A DNA stretch of 30,932 nucleotides from a virus (Duplodnaviria; Caudoviricetes). Under the pieces are notes generated by a model that was not told where the DNA came from, searched no databases, and saw only the letters and a list, made by a program, of their open reading frames with translations. Position numbers and translations under genes: made by a program. This document shows positions 978 to 25,913 of this stretch, one piece after another (position 1 is the first letter of the stretch; each line of letters starts with the position of its first letter). Where the stretch lies: IMG/VR virus record IMGVR_UViG_3300017903_001358, positions 1-30,932 of that record. One strand, written 5' to 3'.

Positions 978-1010
978 GCAGAATTCGGGTCCACCCTTCC
1001 CTCCTCCTGT

Positions 1011-1025: not shown

Positions 1026-1039
1026 AAAGTTAAATCTTC

Positions 1040-2764: not shown

Positions 2765-2810
2765 AGGTACAATCTAGCGTGGGAGGGGTGGAAGAGGCTT
2801 ACAGAGGCTT

Positions 2811-5636: not shown

Positions 5637-8594
5637 TTAATACTTAATACAAGCTAACAGAGCCATGTTTTGTGGCCGGGCTTCGGTGCCACCGTCGTCA
5701 GTAATAGTCGTTGAGGTGCTGATTGTCAGATTGCCACTGTTGTTAACGGTAATAGGGTGCTGGTGCCCGTTGTGAGAGCTAGTGCCGTAAGTAGTATCAT
5801 TGTCAAAATCGTTTCGGGTTTCAAGCAGGTTGGCTGAGGATCCCTGCTCGGGATCGGGGCTGACGCCTCTAAGGACAGTGTGGCTGTGTGCGCCACCGGT
5901 TCCTACGCTTGCAGGGTGGTTGTGGTTGCCTCCTGTTGTAGTTGAAGTTGCTGTGTGACTGTGAGATTTGTTTTGGCTTGATTGTGTTGTGCCAACCGCA
6001 AGGGTACTACTAGAGCCTCGAATAAATTCGTCTCTTAGATCAGGTATGTTAAAAGTAGTTGAACCATTACCGGCACCATAAGTAGTACCGATTGCTGCAA
6101 ACAAATCCGCATAAGTTGTACGACTGATAGCAGCGCCGTCAGCAGCTAAATACCCAGTAGGTGCTGTTGTCCTAGCACTTAAAATAACGGTTCCAGCAGG
6201 AGTAGTATAATTATCTACATACGCTTTAGTAGCTGCATCTTGATCGGAAGTAGGGTCAGTAACATTAGTAATACGGCTAGTGCTTACATTAACAGTACCA
6301 GTCCCATCGGGATTAAGAATAATGTCGTCTTCGCCGGTACTAATAATCTCTCTATCATTAACATCCAAATTACCACCAAGTTGTGGTGTTGTATCATCTA
6401 CAAGATCGGATGAAATTCCATTAATTTCTGCATCAACGTAAGCTTTAGAAGCAGCTTCGGTACTAACCGTAGGTGTTGCAGGGAGACCAGTAATAGTATT
6501 ACCGTTGACATCTAGGTCACCACCAAGTTGTGGCGTCAGGTCAGACAAAAGGTTGAACGCAATAGAACCTTCAGGAATGGTTACAAAACCACGTTGCTGA
6601 TCCACTTCAAAGAACGGGTCATCTGTTTGGTTACCACCAACTTTGAACTTACCGTTGTGGTCGGTAACTGCAGTCCAAACTTTACCGTTGTTAAGTTCAG
6701 TAATCTGTGCGGTCTCATCTGGTACACCTCCGTTTTCAGGTAATGCACGATAATCAGTACCACTACCAACGTATTCCATGGTGTGACCGCTAGATGCGAT
6801 CATAGAGCGGAGGTAGAAGGACACGGCAGCATCATCAGAGATAGCGCCGTTAAGACCAAGGTTAGTGCTGCGGTTGTTAGGATCAGGACGACTAATCGTC
6901 ACAGTCCAACCACTGCCACCCTCACTATCGGTGTTTGCAGTGGCAGACAGAATAGGATAAATGACACTGTTTACTTCGACCAGCATGTTATTTGCAGGTC
7001 GTTGGGTATCACCAAACCAGCCAGTACCAGCAGTAGGTTCATTAATATTAAAGGAAACATCTCCACTGCTAGCAGCACCATCTACGTTAGACGTAAAAAT
7101 AGCAGTAGTAGATTTACCGTCTGCAACCAAAGCTTTTTCACCAAAATCAGTAGTAGATGCAGCTAGGTTAGCCTGACCACCGTTCAAACATTTGATGTGA
7201 TATTTGTTAAAAAACGCATAGCTAGAGGTACACTGTGCATAACCGTTGTTAGTGACAAGAATACCAGGACCATTAAGACCAACGTGAGTATAACTGTCAC
7301 AAACCATAGACCGCAAAGGACTCGTAGTTGCAGGCACAGAGCCATCAATCAGCAGACCACCACCAGTAGGAGCAGAATCAGTATCACCAGCCAAACCACC
7401 AGCAGGGGTGATTACATTAATGTTACTGTTGTCAATCTCAGAGTCTGAAAAGTTAGTACAGTTCTGAATATACGGAGACTTGGTGATCGTGCAGTTAGGA
7501 TAGAACGCTACGTTCCAACCTTGTGTAGTAGGTAGGGTAGAATCAAGGGTGTTGCCTGTTCCAGTACCAGCCTTTACACCAGTAAAGGTAAGGTTCTGCA
7601 AGAATGTACCGCTGTTAACACGGAACATCACATTTGTTTCAGTTGCTACTGTAGGATGAATGATGCAACTACGAAGTGCAGTACCAACAATAGAAACATT
7701 AGCCTTTTCAATGTCAATAGGACATGCTTCTTGATATGTACCAGGTGCAACTACAACGACACTACCATCACCAAACGTAGCATCGTTGTTAATCTGCTGA
7801 ACAGCAGCTTTAATTGTTAGCTTAGGGCGGCTAATACGGTGACCATCGTTACTATCATCACCAGAACTAGCGTCTACATAAACAACTTTAGGTTGGTTAG
7901 TAAACGTACCACCAGACACAACACCAGTCCATGCAGAACCATTCCAAATAGAAAGGGTTAGATCATCATCGTTTTGCAGCCAAGTTTTGCCAGTCGGATA
8001 AGTACCAGTTGGTGTTGTAGTCTGTACAAGAGTAGAATAATCAATATCAAATTGTTGCTCTTGTGCAGCAATAGTAGCAATACTTCTGTCCTTGACACTC
8101 GCATTAGTAGGCCAAGTTTCGCCTACATAGTAAGTGCTGTCAAACTTTGACCAGTAATAATCTCTTAGATATTGATCTAATGTTTCAGTTGGCGCTTCAC
8201 CGCAATTAAGCTCCTGAACAGCATACAAAAATTGCTCAAAGTTTTTATTAAGATCATTAGACCGGATAGCAGAGCCCGGATTAAACAACGCACGGATGTC
8301 GTCCACTTTTGTGATACGACGGATCTTAACGTTGTCAACTGTACCTTCACCAGGAAATGAAGGGGCAGCAGGGGCTGGCGGTGCAGTCCCTGTAAATTCT
8401 ACCGTAGTTGGGTTAGCTTCAGGAATTTGCCAAGGGTAGGTGGCATCCGTCGTGAGCTTTTCTTCCCATTCTTTAGTTGTTGCGTTCCAAAAATAAACGT
8501 GAATTTCAGATTCTAAAATATACGGAAAGTTAAACGAAAAAGTTAGTTTACTTCCGTCTCCAGCTTTAATTGTTTCTACGTTAGCGCACGACAT
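5637..8594 (-). CDS. Tail fibre (T7 gp17-type N-terminal adaptor, beta-helix body, collar, His-x-His tip)
   Basis: GDGS..FSFNFPY...IRRIT...F..GS.IRS.DLN.NF.Q.LY..QE adaptor; VYVD..GDDSNDG...TIKAA...APGTYQE beta-helix entry; TPQLGG.LDVN x2; collar PAGTVI...PTGYL.ADGA.ISRTTYADLFAAIGTTYG.G.GSTTFN.PDLR. Confidence 0.92.
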   Translation of the reverse strand: MSCANVETIKAGDGSKLTFSFNFPYILESEIHVYFWNATTKEWEEKLTTDATYPWQIPEANPTTVEFTGTAPPAPAAPSFPGEGTVDNVKIRRITKVDDIRALFNPGSAIRSNDLNKNFEQFLYAVQELNCGEAPTETLDQYLRDYYWSKFDSTYYVGETWPTNASVKDRSIATIAAQEQQFDIDYSTLVQTTTPTGTYPTGKTWLQNDDDLTLSIWNGSAWTGVVSGGTFTNQPKVVYVDASSGDDSNDGHRISRPKLTIKAAVQQINNDATFGDGSVVVVAPGTYQEACPIDIEKANVSIVGTALRSCIIHPTVATETNVMFRVNSGTFLQNLTFTGVKAGTGTGNTLDSTLPTTQGWNVAFYPNCTITKSPYIQNCTNFSDSEIDNSNINVITPAGGLAGDTDSAPTGGGLLIDGSVPATTSPLRSMVCDSYTHVGLNGPGILVTNNGYAQCTSSYAFFNKYHIKCLNGGQANLAASTTDFGEKALVADGKSTTAIFTSNVDGAASSGDVSFNINEPTAGTGWFGDTQRPANNMLVEVNSVIYPILSATANTDSEGGSGWTVTISRPDPNNRSTNLGLNGAISDDAAVSFYLRSMIASSGHTMEYVGSGTDYRALPENGGVPDETAQITELNNGKVWTAVTDHNGKFKVGGNQTDDPFFEVDQQRGFVTIPEGSIAFNLLSDLTPQLGGDLDVNGNTITGLPATPTVSTEAASKAYVDAEINGISSDLVDDTTPQLGGNLDVNDREIISTGEDDIILNPDGTGTVNVSTSRITNVTDPTSDQDAATKAYVDNYTTPAGTVILSARTTAPTGYLAADGAAISRTTYADLFAAIGTTYGAGNGSTTFNIPDLRDEFIRGSSSTLAVGTTQSSQNKSHSHTATSTTTGGNHNHPASVGTGGAHSHTVLRGVSPDPEQGSSANLLETRNDFDNDTTYGTSSHNGHQHPITVNNSGNLTISTSTTITDDGGTEARPQNMALLACIKY
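5656..5995 (-). repeat. Fibre-tip cassette, copy 1 (direct repeat of 24766-25105)
   Basis: Ungapped alignment at offset 19,110; 266/340 identical by manual count; 5656-5739 81/84; 5970-5995 26/26. Confidence 0.95.
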
Positions 8595-8608
8595 AATTGT
8601 TAATAATT

Positions 8609-11600
8609 TTAATAGCGTGTATCAAGAACGGATGGATCAAAAACTTCACCTGCTGTAGAAAATTCTTCTTGCAAATCTTTTTCAACTTGTCTCAGTTCAA
8701 TGGCTGCATACATATCTGCATCCATTTCAGCATAAGCGAACTCTTCTGCAGCACGTCTAGCTTCAGACAACCTTGCATGAATATCATGCCATTTTTTAAG
8801 TGACACTTCATCGGATTTATAGCCTTGGTTACGTAGTTCACGTAACTGTTCAATACTTTTCCAATCCCCAGCGTCACGCATAATTTCTGCAATTGCATCT
8901 TTAAAAAAGCCACGTTGACCCATCAAACGGAATAATTCAGACCGTTCTTTAGTAAGCAAACGTACTCCATCTTTTGACCTAAACGTAGTGTTTACATCAA
9001 ACTCCATATCTTGTAGAAACTTTTCTTCAGGAGATTGTTCAGCATGGACCTGAATTGGACTATAGGCATTCCAAAGTCGTTGGAACATTCCGTAACCATT
9101 AACCTTCTCACCAGTAACAGGACTGTAAATATACGGTTGACGGTTGCTATCAAATATTGCACCGACAAACCTGTTACGGTTGTTAAGTTGAGACATAAAG
9201 TCAGACTCAACTTCCTGCAATCCTTCAGAAAGAATACGTGAAAAATCACCACGTAATGCAGACAAAGGTCCAAGGCTGTTTACAAAACCAGCAGTCCATC
9301 TATTAATTGCAGCACCATTACCGCTTGTAATATCCATCAAAGGTTTGATAGAAGATAGCGTGGTACGATTAGTAATAGCTGCACTTAAGATGAAAGACAT
9401 CTTTTCACTAAGCTGTTCCATCTTAGCGGAACCAATAGTATCAAAGTTATCACCGATGTTTGCAGCAAGTGCTAGCCAATCAGCAAGGGGACCAAGTTGA
9501 TCATAAGAGTAGAACTTACCATCCAATCCTTTAATGCTGCGTGGCTTCCAATTAGAATTCTTAACACGAGACATTTGAGTCTCTTTATCAAAGAATCCAT
9601 CACCAGTAATGCGATCATTTAGCAAAAGGTTATAAGTGCCAAGCATAGCAAGGGCACCAATTGCCTTACGACCACGTGTCATGTATTTAAGATCAGCAAG
9701 TTTATTCTGCTTAGCAATAACATCCATATTTTCTATGTCAATGTTACGTGATTTAAGCAGTTGATTTACACGATCTTCATCTGCTAGTAAATTAGCAAGA
9801 GGTACATAAGCAAGTTCATTAACATCACGTTGGAACGGCACCCATGGTCCATACTTACCCATAATATCAATAGCATTGATAGTAGTATTTTGGAACATCA
9901 TGAATGGTTTAATACCAGGCAATAATCTAGTAAGATCATTAATGCCTTGCGCCATTGGTGTGTCGATGTTAAGTGCCATTTCATCTGTAGCATACTTAAC
10001 AGCTTTATCGTTTAGCAAACCATCTTCGCTAAACATTTCCTTGTAGTATTTATTAGCAACAGGTTGAACATTTTCTTTTGTAATGGGCTTACCAGATGAA
10101 ATAAGCTCATCCATTGCACGAAAACGTGCTTCAGCAGATGCATTAAATACACCAGTAAAACCGTCCATTGCAGTCATGGCATTAGGACCAAAACGCAATA
10201 CAGGGTCTTTTGCAAGATCATTGAGAAGTTCAATTTGGTTTACAACATACTGCAAACCAGGATTACCTTCTGCAGCTTGACGACGTGCAGACATCTTAAG
10301 AAAGTCTAACTCACGTTCAGATTGCAGTAGCAAGTCAATACGTGTACCAGCACGTACACTTTCTGGCTCACGTGAAGCACGTAAGAACACATCACCAGCA
10401 TAAGGCAATGCACGTTGGAGTGTTTCACCCAAAGAACTATAAGCTACCCAACCACGTTGAATTGCTTTTAGATCCATAGACATCAAAGCACCAGCAAAGT
10501 GTGCAGTAGGTTGAGCAATAATACCACCCATGTTACCCACAAGTGCTTTAACACTAGAACCAAGTCCAAGGATACTATTATAAATATTGGACCAAACACC
10601 TGCAACAATTTTATTCTGTACTTCAGGGTTTAGATTGACAATAGCCTTACCTAAATCTAATGTCTGTTCATCAATCCACTTATTCATTTTAACAATGGTA
10701 TCAATATTACCATCGGTAAGTTCATAAGCAAATAGAAACTCATCCATCAGTTGTGGCTGATTGGTTGCAATTTGACGCATAGTAGACGCAAACCGCTGAG
10801 AGTCTTTAAAAATACGTTGAGCGGTTTCACCAGCTCCCACTACAGTTGCTTCATTATATGCCGCGATGTTTTTAAATCCACTCTTTACCTGTTGGATTAG
10901 ACCCATCTTGCGATTCTTGTAGTATTTAGCAGAAGCAGATAGTTGATTGATATATTGCATCATATCAACAATCTTATCCTGTGCTTCACGTACTGCGCTA
11001 GTACCAGACATCAGACGTGCACCCTCAGAAAGGTCTGAGATGCGTCCAGAAAGGCTTCCAGCAAGCAAAGACTGTGCTCTTGCTACATCCATACTAGACA
11101 GCTCTGAACCGAAGCCACGGAGCATTCTAGCGGCCATTGAGAAGCCGCCTTCAGCTAGACGTTCGGTGCCATCTGCTTCACGGAAAATATAAGGTTCAAG
11201 CACTTGTCGTACATCTGCTTTTGTCATACGGGGATCGAACAATTGAATTGCAAGATCTTCGTTAGCATCGAGTACATCATCAAAGGTAACTTTCCAACCA
11301 TTACCTTCCATGCCAATACGACCAGCTTGCTTAAGTTGATCAGCAAGACCAAGTACAACATCTTGAGCAGCATCCCCATTAGTAAGAGCGTACTTCATAG
11401 CAGGCTCAGACAGCATGTTACCAATACGACCGTATACTGTATCAAGATTACGTGCAATACGTGCATTATCAATAGCAGCACCCACAACACCAAAATCATC
11501 CACAGTACGTACACCAACTTCGGTGTAATCGTACATATCATGAATACCTTTGATAGGCTGATCAAGGTTAGGATTTTGCATGTAACCATACATACCTACC

Positions 11601-12601
11601 TCATCCAACGCTTCCTCTTGCTTAAGAGCAGATCTAGTAATAGCATCTTCAGGATCTACAGCCTTTTCAGCAGGTTTGTTTTCTTTCAACCAAGCACGTG
11701 ATTCAGGTGTCTCACCTACTAATTGGTTTGATTTACGTAAGGCACCTTTAGCATCAAAAAGGGCATTTACAAAACGTACTGAACCAATAGAAAGGTCTGT
11801 TACAAAACCCATACCAAGGTCTTCATAGATATTCTTCTGACGTTTGGTATCTGCATCATCTTCATCCAAGGTAGCCATGCTATCTGGAATAAAGTCGAAT
11901 GTTTTAGGGAATGACTTTTTTAGAGTACCAGCCAAATTATCTTCAGTGTATTCACTACTAACAGCACCAACAACAGCACCAGAAGCAGCTTCAATACCAC
12001 GTTCGCCCATCCATTGTACAAATTTGTTTTGTCCAACAGACCATCCTACTCGTGTATTAGCAGCAGTACCAAGAGCCTTACCAGCTCCCTGCAACATAAG
12101 AGTAGGTGCAACAACAGCAGAAATCTGCCTTACTGCTTGAGAAACTTCATCTTCAAAATCAGTAGGTTTACGAATGTTGACACCAGGAATATTATTGAGT
12201 AAGTCAATGCCGAAATCAAAAATACCCTGACCAATTGCACTGGTGCGTTCACGGACTTGCTGTGTAAATTCAGCTGGATCTTGTCCAAGGATAGTCCCTT
12301 GATCTTCACCGTATTTAGCCCGTGCTTCACGTTTTACAAAAGGATTACCATTGACATATTCAATGTCAGCCTTATCATAGACCTTTCCACCTAGTTCAAT
12401 AGTTTCACCAGGTTCTACTTCTTCCGTAGAAGGAGCTTCGGGTTGAGGCAGTTCAGGTTGTTCTCCCGTAGGAGCTGGATCTTCCAGTAAAGCAGCGGCT
12501 TCTTCAGCCTCCTGTTGGAGCTGCAACTGACTGTTAAAATCAGAAGACAGCTCCAGTTCACCAGGATCCTCCCTAAACCTCTCGTTAGGATCGTATTCCA
12601 T
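8609..12601 (-). CDS. Internal virion (ejection) protein, T7 gp16-like
   Basis: 1330 aa, helical composition, syntenic position immediately before the tail fibre. Confidence 0.8.
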   Translation of the reverse strand: MEYDPNERFREDPGELELSSDFNSQLQLQQEAEEAAALLEDPAPTGEQPELPQPEAPSTEEVEPGETIELGGKVYDKADIEYVNGNPFVKREARAKYGEDQGTILGQDPAEFTQQVRERTSAIGQGIFDFGIDLLNNIPGVNIRKPTDFEDEVSQAVRQISAVVAPTLMLQGAGKALGTAANTRVGWSVGQNKFVQWMGERGIEAASGAVVGAVSSEYTEDNLAGTLKKSFPKTFDFIPDSMATLDEDDADTKRQKNIYEDLGMGFVTDLSIGSVRFVNALFDAKGALRKSNQLVGETPESRAWLKENKPAEKAVDPEDAITRSALKQEEALDEVGMYGYMQNPNLDQPIKGIHDMYDYTEVGVRTVDDFGVVGAAIDNARIARNLDTVYGRIGNMLSEPAMKYALTNGDAAQDVVLGLADQLKQAGRIGMEGNGWKVTFDDVLDANEDLAIQLFDPRMTKADVRQVLEPYIFREADGTERLAEGGFSMAARMLRGFGSELSSMDVARAQSLLAGSLSGRISDLSEGARLMSGTSAVREAQDKIVDMMQYINQLSASAKYYKNRKMGLIQQVKSGFKNIAAYNEATVVGAGETAQRIFKDSQRFASTMRQIATNQPQLMDEFLFAYELTDGNIDTIVKMNKWIDEQTLDLGKAIVNLNPEVQNKIVAGVWSNIYNSILGLGSSVKALVGNMGGIIAQPTAHFAGALMSMDLKAIQRGWVAYSSLGETLQRALPYAGDVFLRASREPESVRAGTRIDLLLQSERELDFLKMSARRQAAEGNPGLQYVVNQIELLNDLAKDPVLRFGPNAMTAMDGFTGVFNASAEARFRAMDELISSGKPITKENVQPVANKYYKEMFSEDGLLNDKAVKYATDEMALNIDTPMAQGINDLTRLLPGIKPFMMFQNTTINAIDIMGKYGPWVPFQRDVNELAYVPLANLLADEDRVNQLLKSRNIDIENMDVIAKQNKLADLKYMTRGRKAIGALAMLGTYNLLLNDRITGDGFFDKETQMSRVKNSNWKPRSIKGLDGKFYSYDQLGPLADWLALAANIGDNFDTIGSAKMEQLSEKMSFILSAAITNRTTLSSIKPLMDITSGNGAAINRWTAGFVNSLGPLSALRGDFSRILSEGLQEVESDFMSQLNNRNRFVGAIFDSNRQPYIYSPVTGEKVNGYGMFQRLWNAYSPIQVHAEQSPEEKFLQDMEFDVNTTFRSKDGVRLLTKERSELFRLMGQRGFFKDAIAEIMRDAGDWKSIEQLRELRNQGYKSDEVSLKKWHDIHARLSEARRAAEEFAYAEMDADMYAAIELRQVEKDLQEEFSTAGEVFDPSVLDTRY

Positions 12602-12618
12602 AGTTTAATTAATTTAAT

Positions 12619-15270
12619 TTACTGACCGGCGTAATGATAAAAATTTCCACGTGGATCAAACATTGGATCTTCCGCTGCTACTCTATTTTTTAGCATGGTT
12701 TGACCTTTAAAATCAGTCCTACCATCTAACCTTAAAAAGAATTCACGGATCTTTGCTTGACCTTCAGGTGATCTCAGTTTAGCAGCTAAATCAGGTTCAT
12801 AACGTGCTGTACCGATTGTTACTGCTTCATATTGTTGAGGTGCTCGGATGATTTCTCCAATAGTACCACCGTAGTTACCAGAAACAAGTCTAGTTAAAAC
12901 AGAAGCGGCGACACCAAACTCATCATCAGTACCTCTTGCTGCTTCACCACTCACAACATATCCTAATTCATCCCAATCAGAGGGAGTAAGTTGGCTTAAA
13001 ATATTTTCAATAGTATTAGCGTTAAACTGTTGACGAAATCTAGAGCCAACTCTCATGCTAGTTGCCTTTGCAAAACGTCTTACACCATCAGTCCTTTCAG
13101 CACCTTGAGAAAGTGCACGCATTTTTTGATTAGGACCGTTAATGTTGCTGTAAATTTGCTGACGCAATTCAGGTGATAATTCAGCATTAATATCCCTTGT
13201 AAGTTGAGGTGGTTCAAGTTCAATTAAGTTAGAAGCACGCAACTGTCGATTGATAATTGTAAATGGGTCAGTACCATTACCTAAAGTTGCAGCTGCAGTA
13301 ACATCAGCTGGAATTGTAAAACCAGGTTTACCATAATTTTGTAGAATGGCAACACCTTCTTCTTTAGTAAGAATGCTTCCTTCTTCATCTAAAACAGCTT
13401 CCAACCCTTTGTCAGCAATCTTTTTAGTTAACGCCGGAAAGTCACGTGCTACTTTAGCTGCAGCAGTAAGGTTACCTACATTTAAATTTGGAAAGTCAGC
13501 AGCACCACCTGCTTTAGATGGTTTACGATACCATTTACTTTCAGGATTTCTAGCTCCATTAGTTACTTCATTAGCCAGTTGTTGAGCAATTGTATTAGCA
13601 GCACTATTGAAATCAGCACCACCTGCTACAGCAATATCAACCCTACGGCGATAATCAGCACGCATCTGCTGTTGCAAAAAGACACTAGAAGGTGTGTTCG
13701 GTTTTTGGTTACCAAAAGAAGTTACACCATTCGCAACAGTTTTAAATGAATCAGATTGAGATTTAAAAATACCTCCATTGTATTTAGCTTCTTGTGCTTG
13801 AAAACGTTTATCTAATTCACGTGCTGCAGTTGAATCTAGTGAATTCATAAGATCAACATCTTCCTGTATAATAAAGCCATCAGGTATGTTGCTTAGACGT
13901 TCAATCTGCTCTGCTTTGAATTTAGCTTCAACTGTAAAGCTCTTTAAATCTTTGTCCAGGCCACCAGGTTCTCTACCGAAAGTTTCTAGGAACACTCTCC
14001 TACTTTCTAAAACATAAGCTTCAGTAGGATTTTCCGCGAAACCTTTTCTATAATTCTGTTCGGCTTCTTTAAATGCAAGGTTGTCGGTGTTAATTTGTGT
14101 CTGCCTGTATTTATTATCAAGGTTTGCCCTTTCACGTACAATGTCACCGTACCGACCTGGACGTGCCTCTGCATAAGGTTTTTTATCACCGGGAAGTTGC
14201 ATATTTGCTAACTTCTCTAATGGTATAATAAATGAACCATCAGCACGTTGTGCAAGAGCACGTTGTTTCAACCATTCGTGAGCCTTAGCATAACTACCAT
14301 AAGCTCTGCTAACTGCTTGAAAACTAGGAATAATGAGAGTAGAAAATTCTGCTGGATTTCCTTCAATAATTTTAGTTTCATTATCAATAGAAATCTGCTT
14401 ATTATATTTTACTTCTTCAGTCCTAATCTTTGCTAGCTTACCTTGATGGATTTTCTGAGCGGTTTCTAAAGCAGTCCGCATAGTTGCAGGTTTAAGAGCA
14501 ATACCAGTTTCTGTTCTGATACGTTCAAGGGTTCCGCCCATTAAATCTGTCATCACCGCTGCAGCTTCACTAGAAGTTAGTTGGCGGCCTGTTTCTTCTG
14601 ATTTCAGAAGTAATTGTTGTTCTACAAGTGAAGGGTATTTATTCTCAAAAAACCATGCTAATTTATACTTCTTAATTTCACGATCAACTCTAGGACTAAA
14701 ATTACGGGCTTTAGATGCAGATACTGGTTCGATAATACCTTCTGCTTCACCTACATCTATAGCCGCCTGACGCTGCTCATCTAACTCATCAACAGCAGAT
14801 TCACCTGCAATAGTTCGGATAAATTCACTTTGATCAGGATTTTCTAAAAACTTTAGTGTCTCCTCTGAAATTTGGTTATCTTCCTTTACCTCTACATAAG
14901 CACCGTAAACTTTACCTGCAGTCTCACTAATGTTAGAGATACTTTTAAAAATTTCAGCAGTAGCGTTTCGATCTGTTGCAATCTGTTGTTGACGTGCTCT
15001 AGCTTCTTGCTGAAGATTACTTAACTCTGTTTGTTGATTTTGTGTTTGAATTTGATAATTCTGTTGTCGGGCAGCTGCTTCAGCCCTTTGATTCTCCTTT
15101 ACCTCACTTAAAATTCTTTCACGGTTTTGAATCTCAGCGTCACGTACATTACGCATACCCTGAACGACACGAGCACTCTCTTCACTCATACGTGCAATGT
15201 TAGCACCGCTGATTTGAACAGGACGAAAACCGGGAGACTGTGCAGCTCTTCTAAATTTTGCTTGTTTCAT
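12619..15270 (-). CDS. Internal virion protein, T7 gp15-like, with C-terminal SleB/Hydrolase_2-like cell-wall hydrolase domain
   Basis: Synteny; Gln/Ala/Arg-rich N-terminus; C-term LGYVVSGEA.RG..DEFGVAASVL.R...YGGTI.EII.AP.QYEAV...GNFYHY. Confidence 0.78.
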   Translation of the reverse strand: MKQAKFRRAAQSPGFRPVQISGANIARMSEESARVVQGMRNVRDAEIQNRERILSEVKENQRAEAAARQQNYQIQTQNQQTELSNLQQEARARQQQIATDRNATAEIFKSISNISETAGKVYGAYVEVKEDNQISEETLKFLENPDQSEFIRTIAGESAVDELDEQRQAAIDVGEAEGIIEPVSASKARNFSPRVDREIKKYKLAWFFENKYPSLVEQQLLLKSEETGRQLTSSEAAAVMTDLMGGTLERIRTETGIALKPATMRTALETAQKIHQGKLAKIRTEEVKYNKQISIDNETKIIEGNPAEFSTLIIPSFQAVSRAYGSYAKAHEWLKQRALAQRADGSFIIPLEKLANMQLPGDKKPYAEARPGRYGDIVRERANLDNKYRQTQINTDNLAFKEAEQNYRKGFAENPTEAYVLESRRVFLETFGREPGGLDKDLKSFTVEAKFKAEQIERLSNIPDGFIIQEDVDLMNSLDSTAARELDKRFQAQEAKYNGGIFKSQSDSFKTVANGVTSFGNQKPNTPSSVFLQQQMRADYRRRVDIAVAGGADFNSAANTIAQQLANEVTNGARNPESKWYRKPSKAGGAADFPNLNVGNLTAAAKVARDFPALTKKIADKGLEAVLDEEGSILTKEEGVAILQNYGKPGFTIPADVTAAATLGNGTDPFTIINRQLRASNLIELEPPQLTRDINAELSPELRQQIYSNINGPNQKMRALSQGAERTDGVRRFAKATSMRVGSRFRQQFNANTIENILSQLTPSDWDELGYVVSGEAARGTDDEFGVAASVLTRLVSGNYGGTIGEIIRAPQQYEAVTIGTARYEPDLAAKLRSPEGQAKIREFFLRLDGRTDFKGQTMLKNRVAAEDPMFDPRGNFYHYAGQ

Positions 15271-15273
15271 AGT

Positions 15274-16116: not shown

Positions 16117-16118
16117 AA

Positions 16119-18680: not shown

Positions 18681-19567
18681 TAGCGTTGCAAAGTATGGAA
18701 CGGTTTATAGCTATTATAAAAATTCTGTCCTTGAGGCTCGCCAAAGAAGGAAAAGTCACCTTGATTACATTCATACTCCATAGCAATAGACCGTGCAAAG
18801 GCTTCCTTTTGCTGAAGGAACTGGTACAGGTTAGCATCACCCATGGTACGGCTAGAAAAGATAACAGCAGCTCGTGCTACGATAAATGCTTGAATAGGAT
18901 CAGGAATATATTCCCAATCAAAATACCACAAGATGTCAACATATACTTCAGCATCAGTCCACTTATAAGTATGGTTAACACGATCGTAAAGTTTACCCCC
19001 ACGGTTAATGCTATCAAATTGACGGTTACCAAACCTCTTTGAAGAAAGGTTTAGATCAACCTGTAGCATGTTATCAGAAATTATAATTTCGTTGTTTGTG
19101 TCAGGTGTAAGTTTATAGTCATATTCTTTATTAAAAGTCCATCCTTCGCTTTGTACTTCACGTGACACTTCTCTAAGAGTGTTGAGTGCAATCGCAACGT
19201 CCGGGTTGGCTTGGGTTTCAACTCTGGTTGTAACCTCATTACGAGTCAAGGTGCGTTCAGATACAGTCTGTGAAATGTTCAGAGTGTATTCATACGTAAC
19301 AGGATCGGTTGCAGGTACGGCTTCAACGCCAGCTACTGCAATAGATGTACCGTCAGTAACACCATTACCACCAATATAAGTACCAACAGGAATGTTAGCA
19401 GTTTCAGTAGTAAGTGTAGTACCCGAAATGGAACCAGTAAATCGAGAAACTTCATTAATAATAAGAGTTTCTTCAGTCGTCAACGTGGTAACAGGAGCCT
19501 GACCAACTGACGCCAGGATCTGATTAACAGCTTTAAGCTCAGTGGAGCCAGTCGATAGGTAAGGCAT
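18680..19567 (-). CDS. Tail tubular protein A (gatekeeper, T7 gp11-like) with ~90-aa insertion
   Basis: TEL.AVNQIL..VGQAPVTTL, EVQSEGWTFNKE, RGGKLYD; longer than the ~200 aa typical of gp11. Confidence 0.93.
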   Translation of the reverse strand: MPYLSTGSTELKAVNQILASVGQAPVTTLTTEETLIINEVSRFTGSISGTTLTTETANIPVGTYIGGNGVTDGTSIAVAGVEAVPATDPVTYEYTLNISQTVSERTLTRNEVTTRVETQANPDVAIALNTLREVSREVQSEGWTFNKEYDYKLTPDTNNEIIISDNMLQVDLNLSSKRFGNRQFDSINRGGKLYDRVNHTYKWTDAEVYVDILWYFDWEYIPDPIQAFIVARAAVIFSSRTMGDANLYQFLQQKEAFARSIAMEYECNQGDFSFFGEPQGQNFYNSYKPFHTLQR

Positions 19568-19601
19568 AATTGCAAATGAGTGTTATTCTCAATAAAGAAT
19601 T

Positions 19602-19628
19602 AAAAAAAGGAGCCCCCGAAGAGGCTCC
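19602..19628 (-). terminator. Intrinsic terminator after capsid gene (T-phi equivalent)
   Basis: GGAGCCTC-TTCG-GGGGCTCC-TTTTTTT just after the capsid stop. Confidence 0.93.
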
Positions 19629-19635
19629 AAAAGAA

Positions 19636-20757
19636 TCAGAATGCAGAAGGCTTCACGTTAGTAGCATAAAGCTCAACAGCAGCAGCGGGATTCAGGTAGT
19701 CAGCGCCCATGGCGAGACGGCCCAGAATCACATCACCCTGATAGATAACGGAGACATCGCCACTGGTGACTTGCACCTGGGGAGCGATGGCTTCGAGACA
19801 ACCAGCAGCTTCACGCTGGAAGATCAGACCACAAGAAGTGGCACCAACCTCAGTAGCAGTACCGTAGTCATTGTTGACACCGGTAGTAGCGCCGGAAGCG
19901 TCTTCAATGGTTTCACCAATGAAGGAACCGGTGTTACCAGGATCAGAAACAGCACCGCCGTACTTAACACCATACTTGCCGAAGAACGGAATATGCATGG
20001 ACTTGTAGATCTTGATACCAGCGATTTCCACGATACCTTGACCACCTTGCAGTGCAGTACCTTGGACATCACGGTTAACGAGACCGTTAGAACCAACAGC
20101 TTGGATCAGTTCATAATACTGACGAGGGTTCAGAACAGCAACACGGCCATCCATAGACACACCCTTTTCATCCAGAGCAGCAGCAGCATCATAGAATGCA
20201 GCAACCAGCTTGGCAGAATCATAAGCATCAGCTTCAGCACCGGTTCCAGAACCGACTTGGATCTGAGTACCACCGGGCTCAACATAGTTGGTAGCAGAGA
20301 TGGGAGATGCAGCACGTGCACCGCGAGTGATCGCACGGAAGATATAGCGGTCATACTTTTCAGCCAAAGCATAGCCGATCTTACGAGAGATCTCAGATCG
20401 CAGATCATAATGAGACAGGACTTCATCCAGCTCATATACAAACGAGGAGCTGATAAGAAGATCATCTACTGTAATGGTCTTCTCAGCCACCGGAGGTGCA
20501 TTGTTGCTGTCACCAAGGATGCTGTTTCCAGGAGTATGGAACTCACTCTTGGTACGTCCAGTGTAGATGAACTGCATGGACTTACCATTGGTCAGCGTAC
20601 GCTTCATGATCAGATCACGAGCGATCGTATTGTGTTGGAAACCTTTGAACATTTCTCCACTGAAAAGCTTCAGATAGAGAGCACGGGTATCACCCGCAAG
20701 ATTAGCCTGACCCAGCTGAGTAAGCTGAGCAGGGTTCACAGAAGATTGAAATGCCAT
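19636..20757 (-). CDS. Major capsid protein (T7 gp10-like)
   Basis: ALYLKLFSGE, RTL.NGKS.QFIYTGR, EKTIT.DDLLISS.FVY.LDE.L.HYDLR.E, QGD.I.GR.AMGA..LNP.AAVEL. Confidence 0.97.
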   Translation of the reverse strand: MAFQSSVNPAQLTQLGQANLAGDTRALYLKLFSGEMFKGFQHNTIARDLIMKRTLTNGKSMQFIYTGRTKSEFHTPGNSILGDSNNAPPVAEKTITVDDLLISSSFVYELDEVLSHYDLRSEISRKIGYALAEKYDRYIFRAITRGARAASPISATNYVEPGGTQIQVGSGTGAEADAYDSAKLVAAFYDAAAALDEKGVSMDGRVAVLNPRQYYELIQAVGSNGLVNRDVQGTALQGGQGIVEIAGIKIYKSMHIPFFGKYGVKYGGAVSDPGNTGSFIGETIEDASGATTGVNNDYGTATEVGATSCGLIFQREAAGCLEAIAPQVQVTSGDVSVIYQGDVILGRLAMGADYLNPAAAVELYATNVKPSAF

Positions 20758-20785
20758 TGTTTTTTATAAAGAGGTTTAAGCAAGT

Positions 20786-20870
20786 TCCTCTGGATCCAGA
20801 GTATTTAGTTTTATTGTGGTCTATCCCACCGTCTAGACGGTCAGAGGTATCGGCGTACCGGCTCTAACCA
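20786..20870 (-). ncRNA. Putative structured cis-regulatory RNA in capsid leader
   Basis: GGTTAGAG/CTCTGACC stem enclosing a CGG-TACG-CCG hairpin; GTCTA/TAGAC and GTGG/CCAC pairings; perfect 14-bp palindromes at 20828-20841 and 20788-20801. Confidence 0.5.
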
Positions 20871-20877
20871 ATAAGTA

Positions 20878-20900
20878 AAGAGGGGAATCGAACCCCTCTC
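20878..20900 (-). other. tRNA T-arm-like hairpin (not a full tRNA)
   Basis: GAGAGGGG-TTCGATT-CCCCTCTT: canonical TTCGA T-loop on a 7-8 bp stem. Confidence 0.7.
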
Positions 20901-20912
20901 AATGTCACCAGA

Positions 20913-21014
20913 TTACCTTTTGTACTCAACTCCACGATAACGAAGCGTATCGAGACGATAACGATCAGCCCGCTTGCGCTGGTTTTTAAGGAAACGAATA
21001 AGATTAATAGACAT
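20913..21014 (-). CDS. 33-aa DUF4278-like YRG peptide (MSINLIRFLKNQRKRADRYRLDTLRYRGVEYKR), not in the ORF track
   Basis: Manual translation; L.YRGV.Y motif; directly downstream of a glutamine-II riboswitch. Confidence 0.85.
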   Translation of the reverse strand: MSINLIRFLKNQRKRADRYRLDTLRYRGVEYKR

Positions 21015-21029
21015 AGTTCGTACAAATAA

Positions 21030-21079
21030 ACCTAGCCCCCGTTCCATGACTAGGTAACATGCGTCCCTAAGGATGAACG
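21030..21079 (-). ncRNA. Glutamine-II riboswitch (Downstream-peptide motif)
   Basis: CGUUCA-UCC-UUAG-GGA-CGCA-UGUU-ACCUAGUC-AUG-GAACG-GG-GGCUAGGU: P1 CGUUC/GAACG, P2 hairpin, 8-bp pseudoknot ACCUAGUC/GGCUAGGU. Confidence 0.88.
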
Positions 21080-21094
21080 TACGAATAATTGAAA

Positions 21095-21820
21095 TTATCC
21101 AAACACTGCGGTGGCCATTGCATCGCCTTGCTCGTTGCCGTTTAAAAAACCTCCACCGAAATTGTAATCTACAACGTAAGAAGAACCTCCAGGCGTGTTG
21201 TTATGCCCCATATCACCTGACCCATTAGCGTTAGCCAGGGCGGTTATTGTAGATTCAAGTTGATTAGTGCCGAAGGTGTGGCCGTCCGCAACTGAATAAT
21301 AACCAGCGCTAATCAACCTGCCACTGCTGAAATTAACCGTAGTTGATAAATCAGTAGTGTTTGAATTTTGCTGTTCATCAACATCTGTAGAAAGAACAGA
21401 AGCACCGCTTCCATTGATGAGCCTATAGGCCACTAATGCACTTCTGAATCCATTTGATTGATTCATGGTGAGGGATGCGTTTACAGTCGTGTCTCCGGCA
21501 ACTACTGAACCTTCAACGTAAAAAATTCCAACTCTTGCATTTCCCGCAGTATTGCTATTTGATACAGCCACGCTGGCGGTTGTACTATTAACGGTTAAAG
21601 AGAATGTTGCACCAGCACCGCTAACCGTTGGATTTGTCGATCCGCCTTCCGCAAGATAAACAAATATGGCTAAGTCGTTAGAAGTAAACACGCTTAAATC
21701 TACGTCAGTAAAGGAAACACTTGGTCCGCTGTTGTCAGCAAGACCATATACAAAATCAATATCTCCCAAAACCGAAGGAGAGTTGTAAATTTTAGTAATT
21801 AGTGCTTGGTGAATTGCCAT
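21095..21820 (-). CDS. Putative distal fibre/receptor-binding protein (beta-rich, Ser/Thr/Gly/Asn-rich)
   Basis: 241 aa, TAATG-coupled to the upstream fibre gene; MAIHQAL N-terminus; beta-sandwich-like composition. Confidence 0.65.
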   Translation of the reverse strand: MAIHQALITKIYNSPSVLGDIDFVYGLADNSGPSVSFTDVDLSVFTSNDLAIFVYLAEGGSTNPTVSGAGATFSLTVNSTTASVAVSNSNTAGNARVGIFYVEGSVVAGDTTVNASLTMNQSNGFRSALVAYRLINGSGASVLSTDVDEQQNSNTTDLSTTVNFSSGRLISAGYYSVADGHTFGTNQLESTITALANANGSGDMGHNNTPGGSSYVVDYNFGGGFLNGNEQGDAMATAVFG

Positions 21821-23022
21821 TAGGTAATCGTTCCAGTGACCACGAATTCGTTTGAACCTACGCAGAGAATAGTTGCTAAACCTCGCTGCCCCAAAGTTCT
21901 GTTGCCAGTGTTTGCAGTGCCTGCTTCGCGCAACGTCACGCTTGCGCCCTGTGTAATCGTCTGGCTAGAACCGCTGTCGTTGTAGATCGTGACGATGTTG
22001 CCTGCACTGAAGACACCGCTTGGAACGGTCACGCCGCCAGTTGTGATGCTGACGTGCTTGCCGTTATCACTTGCGACCAGCGTGTAAGCGGAGGTTTGTG
22101 CGTTTTGTGGAACATCCGTCGGGCCTTGTGGTCCGGTAGGTCCCGCTGGGCCAGCACCTGCCAAGCTAAAAATTGTGATGCCAGACTTGCTTAGTTCTGC
22201 TGTGGCAGTAATTGTGGCATCATTTCTAGTGGCAAAAACTTCAATCGTATCATTTGCGCTGGCATCAATTATGGCTGAACCTACACAAGTAAAATCTCCG
22301 TCTGCGTTGTTTCTTGAGTAAGCAGACGCGAACGAACCGGAAACCGTTGAGCCGTTTTGCCTCAACGATGTCTCAACAATAACCCTGTTGTTACCAGCGG
22401 TTTGGTCACCATCAAGACTGTATTCAACAAAATACTTAGCCGCATTCAAAATAGTGATAACACCTGTTGCGCTAACCGTAAAATCTCCAGTGCCTGTAGT
22501 TAAAACGGTTGTGTCAAAATCAACAGTAACGCCAGCAGTTGTAACCTCTTGCGTACCTGTTCCATCGGCGTGGATATATTTAACATCTTCGCCACCACCA
22601 CCGTTTGCTGCTGCGGTGATCCTGCCTTGTGCATCAACGGTGATGTCTGCCGCTGTGTACGAACCAGCGGTTACAGCTGTGTCTGCAAGCTTCGCAGCAG
22701 TAACGGCGTCGTCAGCAATCTTTGCAGTAGTAACCGCATTTGCGCCAATGTTGCCATGCTGCACCGCACCGGTGTTTATCTTGGCCGAGGTTACTGCGTT
22801 GTTGTCAATCGTCCACGTTGCGCCACTGTTGCTAACAGTTATGTCACCCTTGTCGCCGTCAGTAATACCGCCGCCACCACCAGCGCCGATTTCATGCACT
22901 GAGTTGTCGTCAAGCTTTGTAAATAGCCCGCCGTCAGTCGTATTGATCGCAAGCTCGCCTACGACTAAATCAGAGGCTCCAGGATTTGTGGTGCCCCTTT
23001 TGTGCTTGATTGTGTTGGCCAT
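21820..23022 (-). CDS. Tail fibre-like protein (Mtd-N-like start, AVT.AKI repeats, C1q/BclA-like domain, collagen triplets)
   Basis: MANTIKHKRG...L..GELAINTTDG.LF; DGDKGDITVS; AVTxAKI/L repeats; GPAGPTGPQGP; PQNAQTSAYTLVASDNGK. Confidence 0.8.
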   Translation of the reverse strand: MANTIKHKRGTTNPGASDLVVGELAINTTDGGLFTKLDDNSVHEIGAGGGGGITDGDKGDITVSNSGATWTIDNNAVTSAKINTGAVQHGNIGANAVTTAKIADDAVTAAKLADTAVTAGSYTAADITVDAQGRITAAANGGGGEDVKYIHADGTGTQEVTTAGVTVDFDTTVLTTGTGDFTVSATGVITILNAAKYFVEYSLDGDQTAGNNRVIVETSLRQNGSTVSGSFASAYSRNNADGDFTCVGSAIIDASANDTIEVFATRNDATITATAELSKSGITIFSLAGAGPAGPTGPQGPTDVPQNAQTSAYTLVASDNGKHVSITTGGVTVPSGVFSAGNIVTIYNDSGSSQTITQGASVTLREAGTANTGNRTLGQRGLATILCVGSNEFVVTGTIT

Positions 23023-23025
23023 GGA

Positions 23026-24099
23026 TTAGTAGGTGCCGCCGTCAATCTCAGCGTTTGGACTGAGGTAGTCAGTCTCGTCAACAGCAGCAGTAAAAGCTCC
23101 AGTGCCGTTGCCTTTGACCAACCCTGTAATAGTAGTCGCGCCAGTGCCGCCGTCAGCAACTGCAAGCGTTCCAGTAATTGCGGATGCGCCAAGGTCAACC
23201 GCAAGCTCAGTGGACTCAATAACCAAGCCGCCGTTGGCTTTTAGGTCAACGCTCACCGTTGAGCCGGAAACGTCAATGCCGTCGCCCGCGACTGGAGCGC
23301 CTGCCGCCGCAGCAATGGTGATTGAACCACTACCTTCGGTGATCGTAATGTTGCTGCCAGCCGTAAGAGTCGCAAGCGTGTAGCCGGTGCCGTTGCCGAT
23401 TGCCAGTTGGCCGTTTGCTGGTGTTGCGGTCAGTCCAGTGCCGCCATAAGCAACCCCGATTGCGGTGCCGTTCCAGGTGCCAGTAGCAATGGTGCCAACA
23501 GAAGTCAGGCTGGAGCCGGTAACGCCAGAGCCAAGAGTTGAGGCAGACAGCACGCTAGTGCCGTTGATCTTGAACTCTTTGCCGGAAGCCAGGTTGACGT
23601 GCTCGGAAAAATCCCAGCTGTCGCTGCTGTTCGTCCAAACAATCGTGTGATCTGTTGCACCTTTAAGGGTGATGCCGCCGCCGTCAGCAGTTGTGTCCGT
23701 AGGGGTGTCAACATTGCCAAGAACAATGTTTTTGTCTGCGACATTAACAGTCGTGCTGTCAACAGTTGTTGTCGTGCCGCTAACGGTCAGGTCGCCGGTA
23801 ACGGTAAGGTTGTTGCTAAACGTCGTGTTGCCTGAAAGCGTTGCACCGCTAAGGTCAACCGTCCCAGTAAAAGTCTTGTTGCCGCTTACGGTTTGAGCAG
23901 TGTCAAGCGTTGTGAACGCGCCATCGCCGCCAATTGCAATGACAGATGAGCTTGTGCCGTCACCGTCATCACCGAGACCGTAATAAAGCTTCCGGTCAGA
24001 GGTATTTTCGTTAAACGCAAGCTCTGATGGAGCCAAGGTGGTGGGCGCACCAGCCGATCCCGTAGCTGCACGCTTTTTGATTCGGATGGTGTTGGCCAT
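23026..24099 (-). CDS. Tail fibre-like protein
   Basis: MANTIRIKKR...L...ELAFNE; LTV.GTTTTVDSTTV.V.DKNI.LG; SSLTSVGT; VAYGGTG/VADGGTG; ends IDGGTY. Confidence 0.8.
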   Translation of the reverse strand: MANTIRIKKRAATGSAGAPTTLAPSELAFNENTSDRKLYYGLGDDGDGTSSSVIAIGGDGAFTTLDTAQTVSGNKTFTGTVDLSGATLSGNTTFSNNLTVTGDLTVSGTTTTVDSTTVNVADKNIVLGNVDTPTDTTADGGGITLKGATDHTIVWTNSSDSWDFSEHVNLASGKEFKINGTSVLSASTLGSGVTGSSLTSVGTIATGTWNGTAIGVAYGGTGLTATPANGQLAIGNGTGYTLATLTAGSNITITEGSGSITIAAAAGAPVAGDGIDVSGSTVSVDLKANGGLVIESTELAVDLGASAITGTLAVADGGTGATTITGLVKGNGTGAFTAAVDETDYLSPNAEIDGGTY

Positions 24100-24102
24100 G
24101 GC

Positions 24103-24363
24103 TTAGAAATCGCCTCCTTTGACGATTGTAGAAACGGTCCAGATGTCGTCAGCTTTGAACTGACCTGAGGCTGCGTCGTAGTAAACTACGCTCTTGTCTA
24201 CTTTAGCGGAACTGTCTAGATCAATACCCTCGCCTTTCGGGCCTTGGGGGCCAGCGGTTGTCGCGGTTACGACATTCGTCTTTGTTGTTTGGACAACAGT
24301 TGAAGTGCCGTTATGCGTAACAGTAACGGTTGGCTTTTTTGTTGTTACGTTGACGGTGGTCAT
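24103..24363 (-). CDS. Small collagen-motif fibre connector protein
   Basis: Thr/Val-rich, GPQGPKG, ends GGDF; ATGA overlap with upstream gene. Confidence 0.75.
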   Translation of the reverse strand: MTTVNVTTKKPTVTVTHNGTSTVVQTTKTNVVTATTAGPQGPKGEGIDLDSSAKVDKSVVYYDAASGQFKADDIWTVSTIVKGGDF

Positions 24364-24698
24364 GCGGTGTAACCCTCCGAAACGTAGATGACTCCTTCTA
24401 AATAATACTCTTTGATGTCGCTTTGATCCGTTAAAAGCACGTCATAGTATGCTTCATTAGGAAAATCAGCAGTCTGCGTGTCGGTCAGGCTAATGGTGAT
24501 CTTGCCTGCGCTGCGATCTGTGTAGGCGACAGCAAAATCTGCGTATTTGGTGGTGCGCTTCTTGTTCCAGGCTTGAGCTTCAGCAGTCCAACCGGTCAGG
24601 TCAATTGCGGCATCATCGCTGTCCTTGAACTGCAGCAAAACGCTGTAGTCGGCGCGGCGCTGCAACGTGATGTTGTACGTTCCAGGTTGGACAGCCAT
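24360..24698 (-). CDS. Small Ig-like virion adaptor protein (BppU-N-like)
   Basis: YNITL.R.AD...IDLTG.TA.AQ...G.ITISLT..QT...YYDVLL...YLEG; GGAGG Shine-Dalgarno upstream. Confidence 0.75.
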   Translation of the reverse strand: MAVQPGTYNITLQRRADYSVLLQFKDSDDAAIDLTGWTAEAQAWNKKRTTKYADFAVAYTDRSAGKITISLTDTQTADFPNEAYYDVLLTDQSDIKEYYLEGVIYVSEGYTA

Positions 24699-24746
24699 AA
24701 TGCACCTCCGTCTTTCTAGTTTAGGCCATAAACCGAGCTAGGCCAA

Positions 24747-25913
24747 TCAAGTCTTGATGCAGGGCAACAGAGCCATGTTTTGTGGCCGCGCTTCGGTGCC
24801 ACCGTCGTCACTAATAGTCGTTGAGGTGCTGATTGACAGATTGCCACTGGAATTAACTGAAACGCTGTGGCTGTGGTTGCCAACACTGCTTGTACCGTAA
24901 TTAGATTGATTGTCAAAATCGTTGCGGGTTTCGAGTAGTTGATCTGAGTCTCCAGTGTCGGGATCAGGGTTGCGGCCTCTAACGACAGTGTGGCTGTGCC
25001 CACCAGCTCCGGTTGTACTTGCGCCGTGGCTGTGGCTGCCGCCTGTTGTAGTTGAACTCGCTGTGTGACCGTGAGACAAGTTTTGGCTTGATTGTGTTGT
25101 GCCAATCGCGCCAGTAAGACTTCCTTGCCCTCGTAAAAATTGATTCCGCAAATCGGGCAGATTAAATGTAGTTGACCCGTCACCGGAGCCGTAGTTAGTG
25201 CCAATTGCGTCAAACAAATCGGAATAAGTTGTGCGACTAACCGCCGCGCCATTTGCATGTAAGTAACCCGTGGGTGCTGTTGTTCGTGCGCTAAAAATAA
25301 TTGTCCCAGCAGGCGTCAGGTCGGTTGCTGCTGGAATGGAGTCAATCTCATCATCTACATATTTTTTGTTTGCGGCTTGGTTGTCAGTACTTGGGTCTCC
25401 GACAAGCGTTAACGAGCCGGTCATCGTTCCACCGGCCAACGCTAAATAAGTGCTTGCAGCATCTGTAATTTGCTCGTATCGCGCATCAGCATCGGTTTGG
25501 CTTATGCCTACAGGATCAACACGAACAAAGTTTGCACCGTCATAAATTTTTAGTTCGTCTGGGTCTTGCGATGTGTCAAGCCATAATTGTCCTAATGCAG
25601 GGCTAGCAGGCGCAGATGTTCCAGGGCTTGTAGCAACTGAAGATCCGGGCAAAAAGCTCACAATCGTAAAGCTTGCGCCGTTGTAAACCTTTAGAACTGG
25701 GGGGTTTGTAGTGGTGTCTACAAAAAGCTGGCCGTTATACGGTGAAGCAGGCTCTGTCGTGCCAACGGTCAAGCCTAGCTCTACAAGCCTCAATGCCAAG
25801 TTGTTGGCGGTAATCTTACGGGTTTCGCTGCCGCTGATGCTACTGAAAGGAATAACGTCAGGGCTGGCAACAGTGGTCGCCGCTGGCAGCTGAGAGATTC
25901 TGGTATTTGCCAT
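24747..25913 (-). CDS. Side tail fibre with phage tail-collar domain and His-x-His tip
   Basis: RISQLP N-term; two P..GQL(F/W).DT...LK.Y.G repeats; YLALAGGTMTG; AANKKYVD; collar PAGTII...PTGYL.ANGA.VSRTTY..LF.AIGT.YG.GDGSTTFNLPDLR; EARPQNMALL.CIK. Confidence 0.88.
   Translation of the reverse strand: MANTRISQLPAATTVASPDVIPFSSISGSETRKITANNLALRLVELGLTVGTTEPASPYNGQLFVDTTTNPPVLKVYNGASFTIVSFLPGSSVATSPGTSAPASPALGQLWLDTSQDPDELKIYDGANFVRVDPVGISQTDADARYEQITDAASTYLALAGGTMTGSLTLVGDPSTDNQAANKKYVDDEIDSIPAATDLTPAGTIIFSARTTAPTGYLHANGAAVSRTTYSDLFDAIGTNYGSGDGSTTFNLPDLRNQFLRGQGSLTGAIGTTQSSQNLSHGHTASSTTTGGSHSHGASTTGAGGHSHTVVRGRNPDPDTGDSDQLLETRNDFDNQSNYGTSSVGNHSHSVSVNSSGNLSISTSTTISDDGGTEARPQNMALLPCIKT
24766..25105 (-). 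repeat. Fibre-tip cassette, copy 2 (direct repeat of 5656-5995)
   Basis: See copy 1; same orientation, offset 19,110 nt. Confidence 0.95.

Follow-up and report, generated by a model that had tools for sequence, protein, structure and literature searches.

How does a short-tailed cyanophage come to carry, at the tip of its tail fibre, DNA that resembles the side fibre of a long-tailed phage? The question is raised by a stretch of 30,932 nucleotides (nt) of viral DNA (IMG/VR record IMGVR_UViG_3300017903_001358; the whole stretch is called the window here), which divides into the late genes of a T7-like cyanopodovirus (241-20757) and a lambda-like tail block (21095-30932). The first part includes a gp17-type podovirus fibre gene encoding 985 amino acids (aa), the second a siphovirus-type side tail fibre gene, and versions of one cassette lie near the 3' ends of both. 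We consider it likely that the last 345 bases of the podovirus fibre gene are siphovirus-type DNA, recently recombined in from the side fibre of a KBS-S-2A-like cyanosiphovirus.

An earlier note on this DNA had reported a gapless alignment of 5656-5995 with 24766-25105, and this holds, with 266 of 340 positions identical and a next-best gapless placement in the window of 127/340. The ends of the block are nearly identical (81/84 and 26/26) and, as described in that note, bracket three divergent patches (19/42, 8/17, and 11/27); the mismatches between the copies are clustered (p ~0.0002, 5000 shuffles), and the longest exact run common to both is 26 nt. With blastn the match widens to 5635-6203 versus 24745-25316 (75% over 578 columns). 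Measured against locus L001, a strain of the same siphovirus, the cassette extends over 5656-6000 (345 nt). The adjoining collar does remain similar in protein as DNA identity falls, but the one-codon length difference that had been taken as a sign of the boundary is not one, since L001, although a siphovirus allele, agrees with the podovirus in length there.

The cassette stands apart from the rest of the podovirus fibre gene in its codons. GC content at third codon positions (GC3) is 59/115 (0.51) within it and 258/864 (0.30) in the remainder (p = 1e-5), and the preference for GGC noticed earlier is borne out by GGC:GGT counts of 7:2 in the cassette versus 11:59 elsewhere in the gene (Fisher p = 3e-4). 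In a codon-usage scan along the 985-aa gene, the cassette has a siphovirus-versus-podovirus score of +0.33 bits/codon, and the maximum of 467 podovirus windows is -0.004. Where residues are identical, the same codon is used at 67 of 80 positions shared with the resident side fibre and at 82 of 90 shared with L001. In the collar, 51 of 67 residues are identical to the siphovirus copy and the same codon is used in only 25 of these 51; on the other side, 3' of the cassette, the figure is 1 of 4. Silent sites match the siphovirus only within sharp borders, at about 6000 and at 5656.

The podovirus cassette matches L001 at 300/345 positions, with exact runs of 41, 40, 28, 27, 24, and 23 nt, and the next-best tips are 30 to 37% identical in protein. 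Informative sites fall in blocks, with 52 siding with L001 and 21 with the resident copy. The donor was an L001-like relative and not the resident side fibre, so the cassette ends have no special link to the latter. The recent transfer into a gp17-type fibre that the earlier note proposed is upheld for a relative of the long-tail module (by codons, silent sites, trees, and absence from 70 podoviruses) and fails for the resident copy as donor. Although L001 is 95% identical to the window's siphovirus over 4764 nt, the resident tip is only 66 to 77% identical to it per 100 nt in the variable middle (24843-25142), with flanking DNA mostly at 92 to 100%; this tip is spanned by one 3086-nt contig of contig set X1 with 2 differences. 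Five alleles of the lineage (those of the window, L001, P0123, P0124, and P0125) share both anchors and differ in their middles, and because the flanks are kept while the DNA between them differs, flank-anchored tip swapping appears likely. Exchange of tips through conserved flanks, as had been suggested, agrees with these siphovirus-lineage alleles, but an exchange in both directions does not follow: the only direction evidenced is from siphovirus to podovirus.

Trees of 20 proteins (P0125, for which the split rule failed, was left out) separate the histories of tip and collar. The podovirus tip is the sister of the L001 protein (96/93) and nests within the KBS-S-2A-like siphovirus lineage; the collar falls outside a clade of four lineage members (96/94). 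The cyanopodovirus body of the 985-aa fibre has 80 relatives in IMG/VR, and none of the 70 complete ones has this collar or this tip. Because of the codon use, the silent-site identity, these 70 relatives without either domain, and the discordant trees, the collar appears to be an older acquisition with podovirus-like codons and the needle beyond it a recent one from the siphovirus side. A block conserved at silent sites was also sought in unrelated phages and was not found; cultured phages match the collar only (69 to 77%). As to fibre architecture more generally, the 70 complete relatives (from L206-L285) share a body up to about aa 700-800 and then carry many unrelated C-terminal modules of 77 to 1122 aa. 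One further locus (L183:333-2858) combines a collar-needle fibre with a chaperone and a T7-type terminase, so among T7-like phages the window is not alone in having such a fibre.

By its profile, the shared block is predicted to be the C-terminal needle of a T4 gp37/gp12-type fibre. It follows a collar domain recognized as PF07484 in both window fibres (73-74 bits). A profile of 45 relatives matches the T4 gp37 tip (2XGF, E = 1.4e-7), T4 gp12 (1OCY, 1.1e-10), and the fibre of cyanophage A-1(L) (8KEC, 2.9e-17), and Foldseek with a monomer model puts the same three structures first. H81 and H83 are invariant across the 45 aligned sequences, and the HxH motifs lie on outgoing and returning strands. 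By the topology of T4 gp37, the distal head of the needle would correspond to aa 906-943, a segment that contains the patch at 5831-5847 (aa 916-922), with the other two patches flanking it. The cassette is predicted to form a receptor-binding needle tip, with receptor binding assigned from the family. The three reference fibres likewise have a collar, then an HxH needle, and a conserved RP(x)N-type C-terminus, but the window needles, known here from sequence, are shorter, have four HxH motifs, and in one copy are fused to a T7 gp17 anchor.

Several points weigh against a recent import of such a needle. The trees were built on only 66 and 133 columns, and the branch linking the podovirus tip to the wider siphovirus lineage is weak (83/39). 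The monomer model is of low confidence (mean predicted local distance difference test score of 61, below 50 in the head segment), and the root-mean-square deviations of its Foldseek matches exceed 20 Å. The cassette allele is known in a podovirus from the window's own assembly only, and the 985-aa protein is a singleton among ~15 billion proteins. Receptor binding and a shared host are points that we infer, and the host strains of the cultured relatives differ (WH8101 and WH7803). Contig support for the podovirus borders concerns the right border only, in set X3, and with another allele: the contig holds the podovirus fibre end and chaperone start (30/30 letters identical to 5626-5655) and the matching 42-nt anchor before continuing into a different tip. 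This one contig, in which the podovirus sequence is seen over 30 letters only, suggests tip polymorphism or more than one import at the same podovirus border.

The different tip in X3 and the singleton status of the protein would also be expected if the assembler had taken the podovirus fibre along the tip sequence of a siphovirus strain in the same sample, and several siphovirus strains do co-occur. Mis-routing, however, needs near-identical anchors at both podovirus ends, which in itself implies exchange, and the X3 contig has the right anchor beside the podovirus end; as a weak hint, depth in X1 is 17.2 in the resident-tip bin versus ~12.5 beside it, as from a second copy. We regard this artefact as improbable. 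A collapse of the two window copies onto one another, a concern raised in the earlier note, is excluded because they have at most 26 exact bases in common, being too different for repeat collapse, and because the podovirus copy is nearer to L001 than to the resident copy. Just as improbable, in our view, is gene conversion within one hybrid genome, with the resident side fibre copied into the podovirus fibre and diverging afterwards: the junction between the modules is real (see below), and the 3' 84 nt, at 81/84, and the 21 informative sites noted above do side with the resident copy, but the 52 sites siding with L001 do not, and the resident tip would have to have been replaced later. Likeness through old shared ancestry, convergence, or a diversity-generating retroelement has the slimmest chance, for although the collar and a terminal RP(Q/R)N motif are conserved over many phages, the silent-site match ends at sharp borders and exact-pattern scans for the 3' anchor gave 0 matches in viral contigs (with a pattern too narrow to recover even L001) and 0 in metagenome contigs, while a retroelement is further rejected by differences that involve all four bases with no adenine bias and, together with an invertase, by the lack of a reverse transcriptase or invertase gene among the 24 open reading frames (ORFs) scanned.

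Recombination from the siphovirus side could have proceeded as follows. A podovirus would have gained a unit of collar, needle, and chaperone, which would since have taken on podovirus codon use. In one marine Synechococcus infected by both viruses at once, a pair of crossovers, one in the conserved anchor on the TTQSSQN side and one in that on the DGGTEARPQNMAL side, would have replaced the needle with a siphovirus allele. The siphovirus alleles would themselves be patchworks arising from recombination within the siphovirus pool, and fine adjustment of receptor specificity would fall to the variable patches near the head of the needle. For each module, the nearest cultured relatives are phages of marine Synechococcus, and both viruses probably had the same host, likely of this kind.

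The features of the window are listed in Table 1.

Table 1. Positions of the fibre cassettes and of the surrounding genes and elements in the window
Feature	Position	Strand	Basis
Tip cassette of the podovirus fibre, likely imported, aa 865-980	5656..6000	-	266/340 to window side fibre, 300/345 to L001; codon use
Tip of resident siphovirus side fibre, different allele of the same cassette family	24766..25105	-	Comparison with L001
Collar domain of podovirus fibre	6021..6194	-	PF07484, aa 801-858; GC3 0.21
Four HxH motifs (aa 878, 891, 903, 944) around variable segment aa 906-943	5757..5963	-	Motif positions; profile matches
gp17-type podovirus tail fibre, 985 aa: T7 fibre N-terminal domain (aa 11-129), cyanopodovirus body, collar, needle	5637..8594	-	PF03906, PF07484
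Tail-fibre assembly chaperone-like gene, directly 3' of podovirus fibre	5188..5634	-	PF16778, PHROG tail-fibre-assembly families; GC3 0.27
T7-like right arm: small and large terminase, HNH nuclease, thyX	241..5021	-	Pfam/PHROG; collinear with S-RIP1 down to window position 34
T7-like virion genes: capsid, tail tube, nozzle, three internal virion proteins	8609..20757	-	PF21703, PF17212, PF25675, phrog_6651
33-aa ORF after riboswitch	20913..21014	-	Translation
Glutamine-II riboswitch before capsid gene	21030..21082	-	Rfam RF01704, 52.6 bits
Module junction at stop codon of 241-aa gene	21091..21100	.	Ends of podovirus relatives' alignments, L286, bridging contigs
Lateral-fibre block: LtfC-like 112 aa, 86 aa, 357 aa, 400 aa, terminal 241-aa gene	21095..24698	-	PF23926 (below cut-off), phrog_3304
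Collar-type side tail fibre, 388 aa, lambda Stf-like position after J	24747..25913	-	phrog_523, PF07484
Lambda-like tail tip: J (1420 aa), I (211 aa), 3' end of minor tail gene cut off at contig end	25913..30932	-	phrog_31, phrog_32, PF24801, PF06805

The two parts of the window differ in GC content (0.416 in the T7-like part versus 0.488 in the tail block). The T7-like part has a cyanopodovirus (Autographiviridae) gene set of capsid, tube, nozzle, internal virion proteins, gp17-type fibre, and T7-type terminase, and its capsid protein is 93% identical to that of Synechococcus phage S-RIP1; portal, scaffold, and single-subunit RNA polymerase were not found among the genes of the 30.9-kb contig and may lie outside it. 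S-RIP1 (Kajamvirus) is alike in its collinear late genes, terminase, thyX, and riboswitch-type motif before the capsid gene, but the genes upstream of its capsid gene are scaffold, hli, and psbA, at the place where the window has siphovirus fibre genes, and its fibre region is built otherwise. The tail block has the I, J, side-fibre order (lambda order) of KBS-S-2A (KBS2A), a phage of Synechococcus WH7803 with 40,658 bp (PMC3751600); J is 62.6% identical to its counterpart there and the side fibre 61% to the KBS-S-2A tail fibre, and the blastn match reaches window position 30866. KBS-S-2A is also the best cultured match to the podovirus collar and tip (51%), but its tip belongs to another subgroup and its genome continues into a lysin and its own head genes. 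The contig stops within the minor tail gene preceding I; any tape measure, tail tube, and siphovirus head genes would lie beyond. The gene order 112-86-357-400 of the lateral-fibre block is found again in many siphovirus-type loci, and the terminal 241-aa gene likely encodes a distal adhesin, a role that we infer.

The module junction had been placed away from the cassette repeat, and it does lie apart, at ~21091-21100. We locate the join at the stop codon of the 241-aa gene because the podovirus relatives stop there and L286, a siphovirus locus, continues otherwise: alignments of the podovirus relatives end at 21067-21102, most with psbA upstream, and L286 matches 21093-22279 at 93.6% before going on into a lysis block and convergent replication genes. 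No lysis block follows the fibre genes in the window, which has the riboswitch and a T7-like capsid gene there instead. The two parent ends have only a few bases alike at the junction. The junction is real, because contigs of three studies bridge it, with strain variants: one of 392 nt in X1 (0 differences, depth 11.9), one of 1017 nt in X5 that runs into the capsid gene (10 differences, depth 4.2), and one of 184 nt in X3 (12 differences, 31 letters only on the podovirus side, depth 2.8). Set X1 may represent the sample of origin. Set X4 repeats the X3 figures exactly, and the two were counted once. A chimeric join at this point, considered at one stage, is overturned by these contigs. The bridging haplotypes share different sets of variants with L286 (6/10 in X5 and 7/10 in X3), and no single tree fits them (21119 versus 21132-21133); because this pattern is incompatible with one tree, it points to continued recombination with the siphovirus pool. 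As a separate observation, the more abundant X1 haplotype over the 241-aa and 400-aa genes has L286-type variants, including a 9-nt insertion at 22128, and the window has the minor haplotype at 21203-21244.

The Glutamine-II riboswitch on the podovirus side of the junction is also present in podovirus loci L021 and L045 and in 0/5 siphovirus loci scanned; among the fetched loci, 12 have a riboswitch-like motif, and all of these are podovirus-type. The 33-aa ORF that follows it is presumably DUF4278-like. A promoter scan gave chance-level results only, and no terminator separates the 241-aa gene from the riboswitch. The species genomes contain no relative of the 241-aa gene, so the search gave no host-integrated copy; in the ESM Atlas it matched only unnamed viral clusters.

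A real junction does not settle how much of the tail block belongs to the podovirus genome. The earlier note had reasoned that a junction away from the repeat rules out repeat-driven misassembly of the hybrid; this is supported as far as the junction is bridged in three studies, but a real join is not proof that a podovirus genome has the whole long-tail module, since an assembler may have passed from one genome to another in shared fibre genes upstream of it. Two arrangements stand at about even odds, each with a little under an even chance. In the first, a single genome physically contains the whole lambda-like tail block along with the T7-like capsid and tail genes. This agrees with the bridging in X1, X5, and X3, with the bridging contig alone covering 21110-21170 in X1 at a level of at least 90%, with similar contig depths of both modules in X1, X2, and X3, with the intact state of all long ORFs of both modules, and with a composition that, between the junction and J, is either siphovirus-like or neutral. 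However, 0/377 loci (153 podovirus-type and 78 siphovirus-tail; part of the set came from a capsid scan of 18/64 database parts with the best 80 retained) have both gene sets, and a pure siphovirus of this lineage exists (L286). A full T7-like genome with a full tail block would come to ~55-58 kb (summed from S-RIP1 and KBS-S-2A coordinates) versus 42.6-45.7 kb for the complete cyanopodoviruses listed. Differences from the window are also uneven between podovirus and tail-block pieces, at 10/2882 versus 71/1206 in X3 and 82/4400 versus 80/1760 in X2, and X1 depth over the 241-aa and 400-aa genes is 15-23x, about double that of the flanks.

In the second arrangement, what the podovirus took up, in a variable slot before the capsid gene, was no more than the final one to three fibre genes, and the assembler then crossed into a separate siphovirus. 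This agrees with capsid size, with the doubled X1 depth, and with a tail block that is the more divergent part in X2 and X3; the slot before the capsid gene holds variable genes in relatives, and the middle of the 400-aa gene has a motif in common with podovirus fibres (S-RIP1, 74%). Against it, the depth of the 241-aa gene is not doubled in X2, X3, and X5 (which favours a single genome), no upstream podovirus branch is present among the loose contig ends listed, and it is hard to see where the product of the 241-aa gene, taken by itself, would dock on a podovirus. A cryptic double prophage is disfavoured, as integration of T7-like cyanophages is described as transient in the accessible part of PMC8776855 and KBS2A is without integration genes (PMC3751600). 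We can suggest only tentatively a persistent marine cyanophage lineage that has a complete T7-like short-tail ejection machine together with a lambda-like long-tail tip and lateral fibres in one genome, keeps recombining with free siphoviruses, and feeds their tips into its podovirus fibre; on the same tentative footing, such a genome would belong to a phage equipped with two tail systems, or else to a stable fusion of podovirus and siphovirus. Should one genome hold the whole long-tail block as well, this lineage would break the rule that a phage has one tail machine, and particle shape and genome size would become testable questions. The conclusion about the tip swap is independent of which arrangement is right.

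Exchange of tips across morphotypes is known in other hosts; what is new here is a marine case at base level and a persistent junction. In the accessible part of the BASEL collection paper (PMC11990801), related distal binding domains occur in podo-, sipho-, and myoviruses among E. coli phages, and there and in the portion available of a Klebsiella receptor-binding protein atlas (10.64898/2026.05.12.724579) cross-morphotype exchange is recent, at 87-90% identity, and at short conserved hotspots. Compared with the cases given in those parts, the window has likely marine Synechococcus hosts, a 115-codon needle inside a gene as the unit, both borders resolved to a few bases, and several known donor alleles. 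Cyanopodovirus fibre genes are described as exchanged more than other core genes and incongruent with the core (PMC4646655, in the part available), and hybrid marine phage contigs have been attributed to recent large-block exchange among phages of a common host (Mizuno et al., PMC3861242), although the accessible portion of that paper describes no T7-like tail machine together with a lambda-like tail tip. In the main texts of the open-licence literature we found neither a podovirus-siphovirus tip swap in marine cyanophages nor a T7-like cyanophage with a lambda-like tail block. Because the donor lineage, both borders, and several donor alleles are known, one can test directly whether Synechococcus host range is set by the 115-residue tip and whether siphoviruses are a source of specificity for podoviruses; the cassette also provides a host link, drawn from sequence, between two groups of uncultured phages.

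We note some further properties of the window. The chaperone-like gene (5188-5634) seems to be in two parts, its first 60 aa resembling genes that follow collar-type fibres and its last 60 aa resembling cyanophage assembly-chaperone domains; a search for it in metagenome contigs gave 9 loci, matching the C-terminal part only, and no chaperone-like gene follows the resident side fibre. The 295-aa product of the tail tube gene (18680-19567) has an extra N-terminal segment of ~110 aa matching tail-fibre family phrog_38233, and in many relatives the alignment starts only at aa 119-121. A 389-aa ORF (2811-3980) located between the genes for the HNH nuclease and the large terminase has a GC3 of 0.19, no Pfam/PHROG match, and one distant match only among podovirus loci. 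A direct repeat (25/28) is present between two internal virion protein genes (15487-15514 and 12778-12805). Finally, the non-coding left end (1-240) matches S-RIP1 22848-23046, which follows thyX, and is probably near the natural end of a T7-like genome.

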